From Clostridia bacterium (GTDB lineage Bacteria > Bacillota > Clostridia > Oscillospirales > CAG-272), in NCBI GenBank assembly GCA_024405755.1, contig JAKSOD010000004.1, positions 991-64,990 on the forward strand: DNA of 64,000 nucleotides, given 5' to 3'. The position numbers were made by a program, and so were the translations under genes. Positions 24,456 to 54,786 of the stretch are shown piece after piece. The notes below the pieces were generated by a model, which ran no database searches, was not told the origin of the DNA, and saw nothing but the letters and a program-made list of their open reading frames with translations. Each line of letters begins with the position of its first letter. Positions within the stretch are counted from its first letter, which is position 1.

Positions 24456-24493
24456 GGGGGTGTAAAAACTCGGGAACGAGTTTTTTCACCCCC
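24456..24493. terminator. Bidirectional terminator (conserved hairpin family) between the NUDIX gene and the convergent dapA
   Basis: gggggtgtaaaaactcg-ggaa-cgagttttttcaccccc is followed by gttttt. Confidence 0.75.
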
Positions 24494-24507
24494 GTTTTTG
24501 CGTAACT

Positions 24508-37843: not shown

Positions 37844-38023
37844 TTAAGGCAACACCGCACAATTCACGGCTGACGCCTTGACTGCGCATATGCTTGCATC
37901 TTTTTCGTCATACTTCACAAAATTTCGTTGAAATAGAGAAACTATTCCTTCCTCATTTTGTATCGTCTGACGAAAAATCTGACGGCGCATCTGCACCGCC
38001 AGAATTGTGCGGTATTGCCTTAA
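37844..38023 (+). mobile_element. MITE-like palindromic element A, copy 1 (180 bp)
   Basis: The 22-bp terminal inverted repeats are ttaaggcaacaccgcacaattc and gaattgtgcggtattgccttaa, with 1 mismatch. By eye, one base differs from the arms of the copy at 47454-47797 (plus the central insertion-site bases). It has no coding capacity. Confidence 0.75.
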
Positions 38024-38034
38024 TATTTTACTGC

Positions 38035-38237
38035 GGGACTGTTAAAAAAGTCAATACATTTTTACAGTCCCTCAAAAGCAGTGGTCAGGAGCCACTGCTT
38101 TGGGCGCGACATTGGCGTTTTTGCCTTGAAACAAGGATGGATTTTACTCTTTTTTTAGGGCAAAACGGCGGTGTTCTGCCGCCGAGCCAAATGTCGGCGG
38201 GGTGTTAAAAACTCGATAACGAGTTTTTAACACCCCC
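38035..38237 (+). repeat. Multi-hairpin repeat element B (about 200 bp), forward copy
   Basis: It holds four or five nested or serial hairpins and ends in the conserved terminator hairpin ggggtgttaaaaactcg-ataa-cgagtttttaacacccc. Its reverse complement recurs at 52645-52847. Confidence 0.8.
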
Positions 38238-50608: not shown

Positions 50609-52618
50609 ATGTTTAGGGAAAAAATGAATTCCGTCCGTAATGACGAAAAAATAAATTTGAAGATACAAAAAAATATACCCGTGGGGATCGTGATATTCAT
50701 TATTACCGTCTTCATAGCTGCGGTACTTGCACTTCCCGTGTTTGCCACGGAAGACACGACTCCGGCGATCCCCATTGACAATCTGAAGATCACAAAGATC
50801 GAAATGGGAAAAACCCCAACTAAATCCGTTTACCGCACCGGTGAGTCCCTCAACGTAGCCGGCGCGACGATAAAGATTTATTACAGCGACAATTCCACGA
50901 AAACAGTTCCCGTAAATTCCAACTGGTGCATAGGGTTTGACAGTTCGTCCGCGGGGACATGTACCGTTACGGTCAGCCATCCCATGGGCGGAAATTCCGT
51001 CACATTCAAAGTTACTATTGCGGCTTTAAAGGGAATAAAGATATCTGCCGTACCGAAAAAGACCGAATACTACGTCGGTGAGGCGGAGGATCGTGCCGGA
51101 CTCGTGGTAACGCAGATCTTTACCGACGGAAGCACCGATACCCTTCCTGACGGATACACCGTAAGTGGATTTGAGACTGCCACAGCCGGGAATAAGCGTA
51201 TCACGGTGAGTTTCGGAGGATTTTCGGCAACGTACCAGATTTCCGTGAAGGAAAGAACAGTATCAAAAATCACCGTCAAAAATGCGCCGACCAGAACAGA
51301 GTACTTTATGGGCGACGAACTTGATCCCACGGGTCTTCTTGTTACAGCGTCATACGACGACGGCAGTGAGTCAGACGTTACCGATTATGTAACACTTGTA
51401 GGATTTGACACATCCGAAATGGGAGTACGTACGGTGACTGTGGTGTATCTGTCGGGATCAACGAATTTCAACGATGCTTTTACGATTACGGTCAAGATCG
51501 CAAGCGCATTGGGAATTGAGATCACGACGCCTGCCGCAAAGACGGAATACCTTGCCGGAGAAGAGTTTGACCCGACGGGGATCGTCGTATCCGTGGTTTT
51601 TGAGGACGGAAAACGTGAGCCGGTGACTGAAGGTCTCGAGTTTTCGGGATTCGTCTCAAATTCTCTCGGCAACAAAACCGTTACGATTGCATACGGCGGA
51701 TTTGAAACCACATATAAAGTCAATATTTCCGTAAGTCCCGATCATGTACATACGGAAGGCGAATTTATCACTATTCTTGAATCCACCTGCACGACTGAAG
51801 GCAGCGAGGGCACATTCTGTACCGTATGCGGAGAGCCGGTGAACGTCAGACCGCTTCCTCTTGCCGAGCATTTGTACGGCGAGTGGGAACGATCCATTGA
51901 GCCGACAGAGACCGAAGACGGTCAGGATAAACGTCAATGTCTTGTCTGCGGAGCGGAGGATGTAAGGATCCTTCCGAAACTCGGACAGATCCTTGAATAT
52001 CACGGAGCTGTTGCGGTGGTCAGCGGTGATTATCTGTATCCGGCAGGAACGGTATTCACCACCCGGGATATCTTCGGAACTCTCGGCGGGAGCGAGCTGA
52101 TCTCAATGAACGCCGCCGCTGCGGAAAAACTCAACGCTGAGGTGTTCTCGGTCATTGAGACGGGATTTACGGATTCCACGGGATCGGTTACCATAATCCC
52201 ACCTACTCCGGTCAAATATTCCATTCCGCTTGTAGGATCTGAACCGTATTCCGAAGTGTATGTTATGAGTGACGGAGAAACTGTTGAATCTATCGTTGAA
52301 AACGGAATGATCGTGTTTTCCTCCGATTATCCCGGAAAATTTGCCATTGTCGGAGTGCTTGCTGAACCAAGACCTGTAACGACTTCCGTGGATGACGAAT
52401 CATCATCTCCTGAGGACGAATCCGGAACTGATCCCGAAAATTCCGGTGTGGATGACACCTCTTCCGATAATACTTCCCCTTCCGATACTTCCGGAGGCGG
52501 TGAAGGTCCGGGTATTTCCCGTACGCTTGGCACGGTGATCATTATTATCGTTGCCGTTGCGATCGTAGGTGTTATCCTTACAGTTGTTTATCTTTATATC
52601 ATAAAAAAATACTATTGA
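50609..52618 (+). CDS. Cell-surface protein with five bacterial Ig-like (Big_3-type) repeats, a Cys-rich module and a C-terminal TM anchor
   Basis: The repeats read ...K(T/R)EY.(V/A)GE(E/A).D..GL.V...(Y/F).DGS......GY.VSGF.T...G.K.(I/V)TV.(Y/F)GG..... A CxxC...CxxC segment follows, then an acidic Ser-rich stalk and a final hydrophobic helix. Confidence 0.8.
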   Translation: MFREKMNSVRNDEKINLKIQKNIPVGIVIFIITVFIAAVLALPVFATEDTTPAIPIDNLKITKIEMGKTPTKSVYRTGESLNVAGATIKIYYSDNSTKTVPVNSNWCIGFDSSSAGTCTVTVSHPMGGNSVTFKVTIAALKGIKISAVPKKTEYYVGEAEDRAGLVVTQIFTDGSTDTLPDGYTVSGFETATAGNKRITVSFGGFSATYQISVKERTVSKITVKNAPTRTEYFMGDELDPTGLLVTASYDDGSESDVTDYVTLVGFDTSEMGVRTVTVVYLSGSTNFNDAFTITVKIASALGIEITTPAAKTEYLAGEEFDPTGIVVSVVFEDGKREPVTEGLEFSGFVSNSLGNKTVTIAYGGFETTYKVNISVSPDHVHTEGEFITILESTCTTEGSEGTFCTVCGEPVNVRPLPLAEHLYGEWERSIEPTETEDGQDKRQCLVCGAEDVRILPKLGQILEYHGAVAVVSGDYLYPAGTVFTTRDIFGTLGGSELISMNAAAAEKLNAEVFSVIETGFTDSTGSVTIIPPTPVKYSIPLVGSEPYSEVYVMSDGETVESIVENGMIVFSSDYPGKFAIVGVLAEPRPVTTSVDDESSSPEDESGTDPENSGVDDTSSDNTSPSDTSGGGEGPGISRTLGTVIIIIVAVAIVGVILTVVYLYIIKKYY

Positions 52619-52644: not shown

Positions 52645-52847
52645 GGGGTGTTAAAAAACTCGTTATCGAGTTTTTTAACACCCCGTCGACATTTGGCTCG
52701 GCGGCTGAACACCGCCGTTTTGCCCTAATAAAAGAGTAAAATCCATCCTCGTTTCAAGGCAAAAACGCCAATGTCGCGTCAAAAGCAGCGGCTCCTGACC
52801 ACTGCTTTTGAGTGGCTGTAAAAAAGTATTGACTTTTTTACAGCCAC
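52645..52847 (-). repeat. Multi-hairpin repeat element B, inverted copy
   Basis: By eye its reverse complement aligns along the full length of 38035-38237 with roughly a dozen differences. Two of these are compensatory pairs in the outer hairpin. Confidence 0.8.
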
Positions 52848-52869
52848 TTGCTGTTATTCTGAAGTTTTT

Positions 52870-54786
52870 TTATGCGGGAGGATTGGTAAGATTCTGAACG
52901 ACTCCGACACCCACGGTGTATGGCAGAGGCAGAGTTGTGATCGATCCTTCCCAACCGGCAATGTAAGTTTCCTTGTAGTTGGGGTTGGATTCATTCCACA
53001 GAACTTTGTTGTAGGACTTTTCACGGTATTTGGGGTATGCCTTGATGCCCTGCGGCCAGAGAAGGGTAGCGGGTTTCATCTTCATATAAGCATTGGATGT
53101 ACCGCTGTCGTTGCCCCATGTGGTGTAACCGTGGTGAGCGACCTGAACGATATCGGATTTCAGATATGTTCCGTACATTCTGTTGCAAATGCTTAATGCT
53201 GCGCCGGTGGCGTCACCGGTATGCATATATACGGTTTCGGCACCGGTTTTTTCATCCTTGAATGTCATTTTGATAATGACGCTGGTGGTGTTGAATGCGT
53301 TGGTAAGAGCGGGAGCATAGCTTTCGATAGTATAGAGAACTTCGAGTTTGGCATTGGCGAAGTAGTAAACATGACCGACGTGAGCAGTGCAGAGATCTGC
53401 ACCGAGACTATCGGCGGCAGCAACTACGTTCGACCATGCGCTGCCTTCGGTGGCTGACCAGTTATCCGCGCCTTTGTTCATATAGTAATTAATGGCTTTC
53501 TGACGCTCGGTATCGGACATAAAGTTGACAATGAAACGTTCAACGGTAATTTTTGCTTTGCTTATTTCGGAGTACTTACCGCCGATCATTCCGGAGTGAT
53601 CACTGTGTGCGTGGGTAATGAGCCATGCGGCAACTCTGATGCCTCCGGTCTTGGCGACATAATCGGCTGACTGCTCTTTCATTTGTTGGACCAGAAGATT
53701 GGCGTGAGCCGTACGGTTGTAACCGCCGTCGACCACAATAAAGCGTCCGTCGGTAAGTCTGATAAGGATGGACATACCGTTGCTGGAATATTCGGTAGCG
53801 GTTGCAGTGGAATTCTTGACGTATTCAAGTCCGATCATGGTGATCTGTGAAGTGGTCACAACATCATACTTGTTCTCATCTGCAAGAGGAACAAGGGACT
53901 GTTTCGTAAACGGCTCAACGATCATGCGGATCGTTTTTTCATAAGCATAGTAACCGATATTGACTGTGTAATTTTCGTTGTAGTATGTAGCAAAACTGTT
54001 ATCGGTGATCTTGTTTGTGGTGTGGCACTTGAAGCCTTCCTGACCGAGTTTTGCGAGGTAAGCGTTGTAGATTTCTTCGGTGGTGCCGGAGAAGATCAGT
54101 TCGTTGCCGTTGCCGGGTTCATAGCAGGAAGTCAGTTTTGCATTTTCCATAATGGGCATTGCGGAAAGGGTTTTGCTCTTGGATCCGGAAGCTTCAATAT
54201 CGGACTTTTTAAGTTTGACGGTCACTTTCCCGGTTGCTTCATCTTTGACCGCGGAGTTCTTGACAAGACGGTTGAAAGTATTGACGGCGGAATTTAATGC
54301 GGTACTCGTATATCCGAGGATAACGATCTTATTTCCCTTGACGGTAACGAGGTAATCGCCGTATTTCATTTCGGAGGCAGCCTCGGCGGTTTCGGGGTAA
54401 TCGGTAAGACCGACAAGGATTTCAAGGGTATCCTTGGGATATTCATCGGCAGGTTTTTTCCAGTCATCATTGATAGGAACTGTGACGTTGGTAACCGTTG
54501 TGATGTTTTTGCGGATGTTCATGGCAGCCTGAACGGATATATCATCGGTATCAAGGTCAACGTGCCGGATAACACGAACGTTGCTTTCTCCGTCGACCAC
54601 AATGTCGAGAGTGTCACCGGAGTCGGGCGTATCGGCGGAATCGTCTGGCGTATCGGACCCTCCGGCAGTATCTGCGGTGTTATCACCGTTTTGGCCGTCG
54701 TCGCATCCGATAAGATATATCGGGACGATCGAGATGATCATTAAAGCGGCAAGCAATAAAGCAAGCAAGCGTTTTCTGAAAATCAT
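52870..54786 (-). CDS. Lipoprotein with a C-terminal metallo-beta-lactamase-fold (ComEC/Rec2-related-like) domain
   Basis: The lipobox is IYLIGC. An acidic linker and about 300 aa of unknown sequence come before ...WLITHAHSDHSG... and ...VAHHGY..., the MBL HxHxDH and distal His motifs. Confidence 0.7.
   Translation of the reverse strand: MIFRKRLLALLLAALMIISIVPIYLIGCDDGQNGDNTADTAGGSDTPDDSADTPDSGDTLDIVVDGESNVRVIRHVDLDTDDISVQAAMNIRKNITTVTNVTVPINDDWKKPADEYPKDTLEILVGLTDYPETAEAASEMKYGDYLVTVKGNKIVILGYTSTALNSAVNTFNRLVKNSAVKDEATGKVTVKLKKSDIEASGSKSKTLSAMPIMENAKLTSCYEPGNGNELIFSGTTEEIYNAYLAKLGQEGFKCHTTNKITDNSFATYYNENYTVNIGYYAYEKTIRMIVEPFTKQSLVPLADENKYDVVTTSQITMIGLEYVKNSTATATEYSSNGMSILIRLTDGRFIVVDGGYNRTAHANLLVQQMKEQSADYVAKTGGIRVAAWLITHAHSDHSGMIGGKYSEISKAKITVERFIVNFMSDTERQKAINYYMNKGADNWSATEGSAWSNVVAAADSLGADLCTAHVGHVYYFANAKLEVLYTIESYAPALTNAFNTTSVIIKMTFKDEKTGAETVYMHTGDATGAALSICNRMYGTYLKSDIVQVAHHGYTTWGNDSGTSNAYMKMKPATLLWPQGIKAYPKYREKSYNKVLWNESNPNYKETYIAGWEGSITTLPLPYTVGVGVVQNLTNPPA

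Follow-up and report, generated by a model that had tools for sequence, protein, structure and literature searches.

Architecture of element B in the ileS-lspA spacer

The window analysed here, a stretch of 64,000 nucleotides, belongs to a gut Clostridia MAG (G000; 2.12 Mb, 187 contigs, 47.6% G+C) in which the spacer between ileS and lspA measures 428 nt, as against ~90-110 nt in relatives. The spacer holds two unrelated insertions side by side, elements A and B, and its length difference is consistent with both being insertions. The relatives are ~70-74% identical in coding DNA and are therefore too distant for a base-level empty-site comparison of the G000 copies, and an exact-protein look-up of LspA for other strains of the species matched this assembly alone. 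Element A lies 11 nt from element B and represents an independent family of ~25 copies with 97-99% identity, many of which are found at contig ends. A second full-length copy of element B occurs elsewhere in the window (Table 1); the two copies align end to end without large gaps and differ at ~15 positions.

Table 1. Positions in the window of element B, its helices and neighbouring features
Feature	Position	Strand	Description
Solo H4-family hairpin	24456-24495		CGGGGGTGTAAAAACTCG-GGAA-CGAGTTTTTTCACCCCCG, then TTTTTGCG
ileS stop codon	37830-37832		
Element A	37844-38023		independent repeat family
Element B, copy 1, full length	38035-38237	+	203 nt, in the ileS-lspA spacer beside element A
H1, 5' terminal palindromic hairpin	38035-38071	+	GGGACTGT..ACAGTCCC; homologous to H4; stem arms GGGACTGTTAAAAAAGTC-loop-..TTTTTACAGTCCC, with double changes in 12 of 16 pairs across the family
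H2, 12-14-bp hairpin	38072-38104	+	CAAAAGCAGTGG-TCAGGAG-CCACTGCTTTTG (stem GCAGTGG/CCACTGC); loop semi-conserved, C-R-G-G-A
Three-way-junction core (P3/P4/P5)	38107-38197	+	most sequence-conserved part of the family
P3, long-range helix	38107-38116 with 38186-38197	+	CGACATTGGC/GCCAAATGTCG
P4	38119-38165	+	TTTTGCC..GGCAAAA, enclosed by P3; tip variable
P5	38166-38184	+	GGCGG-TGTTCTG-CCGCC, enclosed by P3
H4, 3' terminal perfect hairpin, intrinsic-terminator type	38199-38236	+	17 bp here, 18 bp in the family consensus
lspA ATG	38260		
Convergent gene beside copy 2	50609-52618	+	
Element B, copy 2, full length	52645-52847	-	fills the spacer between the convergent genes
Convergent gene beside copy 2	52870-54786	-	

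Element B is predicted to fold on its + strand with a minimum free energy of -104.7 kcal/mol, compared with -54.3 +/- 4.4 in dinucleotide shuffles (z = -11.5), and the reverse strand folds nearly as stably (z = -10.8). Copy 1 scores 229.7 bits against our covariance model R1, over model positions 1-204. The plan of the unit is one of two terminator-type palindromes, H1 and H4, flanking a conserved module composed of H2 and the three-way junction P3/P4/P5, such that the conserved part of the element is internal and not terminal. Within a genome the core is near-invariant (GUUUUGCC..GGCAAAAC-GGCGG-UGUUCAG-CCGCC-GAG..GUCG), with drift confined to places such as the P4 tip and the H2 loop. The boundaries are sharp, starting with G(G/T)GGCTGTTAAAAAAGTC and ending with GAGTTTTTTAACACCCC, and the two ends are formally inverted complements (GGGGCTGTTAAAAAA / TTTTTTAACACCCC): H1 and H4 being homologous palindromes, each end repeats the other both directly and in inverted form. 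H4 is followed by CATTTTC in copy 1 and by T-rich sequence in most copies.

A first-pass annotation of this DNA had placed element B directly against element A, filling the rest of the ileS-lspA spacer, and had reported an inverted copy at 52645-52847 with roughly a dozen differences. It had also described two hairpins, a long-range pairing enclosing two stems, and a terminal hairpin, as well as paired substitutions between the copies in H1. The ileS and lspA coordinates, the alignment of the two copies and the fold agree with this description, all of the helices lying where they had been drawn, and the H1 substitutions are exactly as described: gGgActgt/acagTcCc becomes gTgGctgt/acagCcAc, exchanging G-C for T-A and A-T for G-C. 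A comparison with Rfam, also proposed there, gave no family match to element B. The cmscan search (E <= 10) returned noise alone, its best hit being STnc400 at 24.5 bits versus a threshold of 80 (E = 0.041) and confined to the terminal hairpin. With nothing at the Rfam gathering threshold, we reject a known RNA family as the identity of element B.

The element B family is also modular. A short form of ~130 nt, consisting of the three-way junction and H4 without H1 and H2 (model positions ~71-204), is recurrent (e.g. G000:C101:2870-2997, G002:C29:23236-23368, and G014:C184:3-135), and an ~80-nt module of P5 and H4 recurs as well. In three G000 copies (C102:27876-28091, C113:1-217, and C147:48-310; L016, L017, and L013) an alternative hairpin, GGGGCTGTCTCACTTACGTGATCCAGCCCC then GCAAATCCTGCTCGGCAAATGAAA, substitutes for H4 or H1, and all three contigs stop there. 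This hairpin may represent either an additional type within the family or the terminus of a different repeat; the elements of a more distant genome (G179, see below) end in a hairpin similar to GGGGCTGTCTCACTTACGTGATCCAGCCCC.

Copy number and distribution

G000 contains ~19 full-length copies (86-98% identity to the consensus) and ~12 partial or degenerate ones, together with 15 solo H4-type hairpins, most of which are framed by A-runs and T-runs in the manner of a bidirectional terminator. The first-pass annotation had treated element B as a feature of two copies at a single locus, which it read as a structured RNA (for instance an sRNA or 3'-UTR element) or as a DNA cruciform recognised by a recombinase. 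With ~30 copies in G000 alone, we reject a two-copy inverted repeat peculiar to the locus, and that framing gives way to a dispersed, recently mobile family found at terminator positions.

A covariance model built from the G000 copies recovers the family from 30 out of 38 genomes belonging to the genus. Six of these have 20-60 matches each, and the consensus sequences are species-specific, ~70-75% identical to that of G000. The genome G002 has 11 assembled copies that share 96-100% identity, and at least 12 of its contig ends fall within element B. Near-identical copies combined with contig breaks indicate a very recent burst. Copies in this genome include L149-L158, and the contig ends concerned include those of C6, C14, C29, C31, C39, C49, C41, C12, C5, and C20. 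Beyond the genus, a broader covariance model finds at least 16 copies of a related ~180-nt element in G179, a genome from another family of the order; the helix order is the same, and the H2 and P5 stems are compensated. The carriers are uncultured Clostridia of human gut, Hadza, and rumen origin, labelled 'Clostridia bacterium', 'Eubacteriales', 'Anaerotruncus sp.', or 'Ruminococcus sp.', and no match to element B was found in INPHARED, PLSDB, or IMG/VR as a sign of phage or plasmid carriage. Element B belongs to a previously undescribed family of non-coding repeats, ~200 nt long and interspersed in the genomes of gut Clostridia.

Compensatory change across the fold

Covariation was assessed in a structure-aware alignment fitted to the model (A5; 75 copies from 10 genomes). 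Standard pairs occupy 95.0% of pair cells, and double compensatory changes are present in 62 of 72 base pairs (593 cells, a count that overstates independent events since copies within a genome are related). The observed measures were reached by none of 500 shuffles, and pairing falls to 42-51% when the 3' partners are slid by 1-3 columns. The covariation is also visible in a plain MAFFT alignment and is thus not an artefact of model fitting; the H2 stem, for example, appears there as GCAGTGG/CCACTGC, TGCCGG/CCGGCA, GTCACGG/CCGTGAC, and other variants. All 14 pairs of H2 are doubly changed, giving at least eight distinct Watson-Crick versions of the stem, and all 10 pairs of P3 covary across arms that lie ~80-130 nt apart. 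The stem bases of H1 and H4 vary from copy to copy within a genome and are almost always perfectly Watson-Crick. The whole fold of element B is preserved by compensatory substitution and, since such change keeps the fold, element B is not neutral repeat DNA. The first-pass annotation had drawn the same conclusion, selection on the fold as opposed to neutral repeat, and had proposed gathering further copies; over 75 copies the signal lies far above that of the shuffles and the conclusion stands.

When each copy was compared with the consensus pair of its own genome, we counted 208 compensated double changes, 90 G-U, 43 A-C, and 113 other mismatches. The excess of G-U over A-C (90:43) favors a single-stranded role for the + strand, whether as RNA or as ssDNA, a reading that we treat as suggestive only, given the non-independence of the cells.

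Compensation could in principle arise as a mutational by-product in which the fold is not selected, namely through quasipalindrome correction by intrastrand template switching together with hairpin gene conversion. Such a process would account for terminal stems that differ in sequence among the copies of one genome yet remain almost perfectly paired, and for one orthologous H4 (locus L133) that shows a paired substitution and a paired indel between species, carries an H1-type stem base, and looks like the product of a single swap. Palindrome correction or hairpin conversion may indeed contribute to H1 and H4. However, P3 and the base of P4 covary with arms ~80-130 nt apart, the G-U over A-C excess would be left unexplained, and the multi-helix plan persists at 70% identity and in another family of the order; the counts already point towards covariation in P3, P4, and P5. 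As an account of the whole element we therefore judge this explanation highly improbable.

Position between genes and predicted termination

Element B is strongly associated with the spacers of convergent genes. In G000, using crude, ORF-based gene calls, 16 of 26 element-carrying spacers are convergent compared with 219 of 1625 others (odds ratio 10.3, p = 2.5e-8); in relatives, convergent genes surround 21 of 31 loci, usually with 5-30 nt from the element to both stop codons. A makes up 50-58% of the left flank and T 60-64% of the right, the A-tract/T-tract framing typical of bidirectional intrinsic terminators. In copy 2, a terminator-like signal is predicted on each strand, formed by H4 (52684-52645) with the following CTTGTTTTTT on one and by the reverse complement of H1 (52809-52850) on the other. 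With the hairpin and T-tract for each convergent transcript lying at the far edge, both transcripts would cross the element, and their 3' ends are predicted to overlap by ~200 nt.

Flanking direct repeats average 1.35 nt versus 1.21 nt in shuffled flank pairs (p = 0.17), giving no indication of a target-site duplication, and none is seen where filled sites are compared with their empty orthologues. Base composition, taken position by position along 72 left flanks, reveals no fixed motif 5' of the element beyond A-richness; in the 12 young copies of G002 the last left-flank bases all differ, and neither a hairpin nor a conserved motif is present at the left flank. Complementarity between left and right flanks, as would be expected of a palindromic target, shows a weak excess (stem run 2.4 vs 2.0 nt). 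Orientation relative to the coding-rich strand is unbiased (11:10), and where the neighbouring genes are in tandem, element and genes point the same way in 10 of 14 cases, which is not significant.

Filled and empty orthologous sites

Three sister species (G050, G051, and G052), whose flanks are 86-98% identical, permit a comparison of orthologous sites. At one locus (L135), G052 has a solo family hairpin followed by TTTTTGCA, and G050 keeps the same hairpin with ~210 nt (15 nt and the whole element) placed exactly between the stem foot and the TTTTT tract. The 15 extra nucleotides (TAAAAATTTCGTAAC; G050:C1:944-1441) precede a degenerate H1 and may be flank carried from a donor site. At a second locus (L136), G050 has H1 followed by H2, core, and H4, and G052 has a solo hairpin that is orthologous to the G050 H1 and differs by a compensated C-G/G-C swap. 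Elsewhere the full element stands where the sister has only a hairpin: an unrelated GC-rich hairpin occupies the same place in G050 opposite the G052 element at L051, and in G051 opposite the G050 element at L130; at L166 the G052 element corresponds to a solo family hairpin in G050; and at L167 the G050 hairpin shares with the H1 of the G052 element only the stem base GTGGCTG/CAGCCAC. The insertion rule is not uniform: two loci show insertion directly after a hairpin foot, and the young G002 copies have no hairpin at their left flank. At the orthologous sites the sister species have nothing more than a terminator hairpin, native or of the family type.

Presence or absence of the element thus differs at orthologous loci between sister species, and the family is mobile or recently mobile. 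It lands between the A-tract and T-tract at gene 3' ends, where the sister species have an ordinary terminator hairpin. Just one of 12 G050 loci is common, and intact, to both sister species; in a copy present in all three species (L133), divergence affects the P4 tip and the H2 loop but spares the stems and core.

An alternative is that the element is a structured RNA used by the host that merely spreads like a repeat, with selection maintaining every copy where it stands. Element B would then form the 3'-terminal part of the transcript of the upstream gene, and H2 and the three-way-junction core would perform a cellular job, for which an mRNA 3'-end stabiliser, an insulator of convergent units, a protein-binding site or sponge, and a 3'-UTR-derived sRNA are candidates. 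The near-invariance of the core within genomes while the loops and P4 tip drift, the same pattern in the copy common to three species, the G-U over A-C excess on the + strand, the co-orientation with genes in tandem contexts, and the conservation of the architecture in another family of the order all lend themselves to such a role, and pneumococcal BOX and SPRITE repeats are known to be transcribed (PMC3049150). Against it stand the fast turnover of loci between the sister species, the few or absent copies in many genomes of the genus, and the broken P5 helices of old G000 copies; moreover, the 10:4 co-orientation is not significant, and the convergent spacers, which house most copies, expose both strands. 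On balance we regard host use of this kind as a possible but rather doubtful explanation for the family.

Search for a mobilising enzyme

No match to the Y1/HUH (PF01797), TnpB (PF07282), IS110 (PF01548), or RVT_1 (PF00078) families was found in the draft MAGs G000 and G002, and PF01797 and PF07282 were likewise unmatched in G050, G014, and G052. The sole Y1 gene (IS200-type) among the five element-rich genomes searched is located in G051 (G051:C5:131640-131996; L194), and the 3.3 kb around it contain nothing matching the element model, as is also true of three RT loci in relatives. No parent IS with the ends of element B was identified among the four enzyme families searched in these MAGs. 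All of the genomes are draft MAGs, and fragmented MAGs often miss IS copies, so that the absence of an enzyme is weak evidence; an IS200/IS605, TnpB, IS110, or retro-element partner, unmatched in the key genomes, is provisionally set aside.

IS200/IS605 elements transpose as ssDNA by 'peel-and-paste' at the feet of hairpins and lack classical terminal inverted repeats. Element B resembles their PATE derivatives in having hairpins at both ends (H1 and H4) and no target-site duplication, and is unlike the group in the lack of TnpA and TnpB in the searched genomes, of a 5' target motif, and of any orientation bias. Element B might derive, as a non-autonomous form, from a hairpin-ended system already known, be it IS200/IS605 (PATE), REP/BIME with RAYT, or attC-like sites. 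In favor of this, two insertions are placed immediately 3' of a hairpin foot, the solo hairpins could be targets or excision products, and the stems are conserved in structure and variable in sequence, as in attC sites. Set against this are the unmatched PF01797 and PF07282 in G000, G002, G050, G014, and G052, the G051 Y1 gene without element-like surroundings, a left flank without a conserved target tetranucleotide, and hairpins without a GTAG-type REP head. The box order of integron attC sites is R''(RYYYAAC)...R'(GTTRRRY), AAC preceding GTT, whereas the hairpins of element B read GTT...AAC and its copies are dispersed singly and not in cassette arrays. We consider descent from any of these systems very improbable.

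Two further classes can be set aside. Group IIC introns insert after terminators and need intron RNA domains and a reverse transcriptase; element B is ~200 nt long, has no group II match in Rfam, and is accompanied by no RVT_1 in G000 or G002, and a group IIC intron is rejected. Classical MITEs (Correia/NEMIS, ERIC, RUP, BOX, and bcr1) have defined terminal inverted repeats and target duplications (TA, TTAA and others), mostly come with a candidate parent IS, and share transcripts with adjacent genes. Element B is similarly short, non-coding, intergenic, multi-copy, and rich in stable hairpins, but it makes no target-site duplication and is rejected as a classical MITE.

Relation to described repeats

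By description, SPRITE of Streptococcus pneumoniae is the closest described thing to element B, a likeness of kind that does not imply descent. SPRITE has ~30 copies with an 18-bp duplex and a U-rich tract; AAAA/TTTT are its sole terminal repeats, and no target-site duplication or parent IS is known (PMC3049150). Among the pneumococcal repeats it shows the strongest enrichment between convergent genes, and its co-option as a terminator has been suggested (PMC3049150). Both families comprise tens of copies with a long duplex followed by a T/U-rich tract and with edges of A/T runs, and both are enriched between convergent genes near 3' ends; no target-site duplication or parent IS has been identified for either. 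Unlike SPRITE, element B has two such hairpins and a conserved, covarying ~130-nt module of H2 and the three-way junction (62 of 72 pairs in the whole element), is spread over a genus plus a second family of Clostridia, and offers comparable empty and filled orthologous sites at which it is found in place of native terminators.

REP/BIME sequences, whose transposases are the RAYT (Y1 HUH) proteins, are extragenic palindromes of 20-40 nt with a conserved GTAG-type head, found at gene 3' ends as single hairpins or as two hairpins around a linker; they can act as terminators or mRNA stabilisers and are thought to be handled as folded single strands. Element B is like them in forming 3'-end palindromes, both singly and as two-hairpin composites. 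It differs in that no RAYT/Y1 gene is found in genomes with recent copies, in hairpins of 37-40 nt that start with G(G/T)GG, vary in their stem bases, and have no REP GTAG head, and in a central conserved multi-helix module of 130 nt in place of a short linker. HEARO/omega RNAs are, like element B, multi-copy structured repeats, and element B has no Rfam match. Element B belongs with the small interspersed terminator-like repeats and is not a member of any named family.

A probable structure-dependent mobile element at terminators

We think it probable, with moderate confidence, that element B is a non-autonomous, structure-dependent mobile element that supplies terminator hairpins. The element would be moved in trans by an enzyme recognising its folded single strand, with H2 and the three-way-junction core as the putative recognition module and the hairpin feet as the likely points of strand cutting and joining. 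Propagation would be limited to copies that keep the fold, and this would explain the covariation. The 18-bp hairpin at each edge would come to lie next to the resident T-tract on one strand and next to the complement of the A-tract on the other; with termination predicted to be restored in both directions, insertions into terminators would be tolerated and native hairpins could be lost.

Some observations count against this reading. The searches of G000 and G002, which are fragmented MAGs, found no mobilising enzyme, the insertion rule varies between loci, and the near-invariant core, also in copies common to three species, fits host function equally. In addition, an enzyme acting on lagging-strand ssDNA, e.g. 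IS608 TnpA, is expected to leave an orientation bias, and the ratio of 11:10 counts against an enzyme of that type.

A bolder version, which we consider unlikely although not negligible, is that element B represents a new kind of mobile 'terminator cassette', cut and joined as a single strand at its hairpin feet and swapping with resident terminators. Its core would dock an undiscovered recombinase or nuclease, or would itself be catalytic or guide-like. HEARO repeats, which turned out to be omega RNAs of IscB, offer an analogy for a core that might prove guide-like.

Small interspersed repeats such as REP, ERIC, BOX, and SPRITE are common in bacteria, and their mode of spread and use by the host are mostly unresolved. 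The element B family is an unusually clean case, combining a complex fold in which almost all helices covary, one species with a recent burst, orthologous sites with and without the element that show it in place of terminator hairpins, and no recognisable transposase. For annotators of gut-Clostridia MAGs it explains many contig breaks and the 'orphan' hairpin stacks at gene ends. More generally, a probable structure-dependent mobile element of this kind provides a concrete model for how a structured element may be copied into terminators without harming transcription and, if the core binds or guides an enzyme, the family would define a new mobile-element mechanism.
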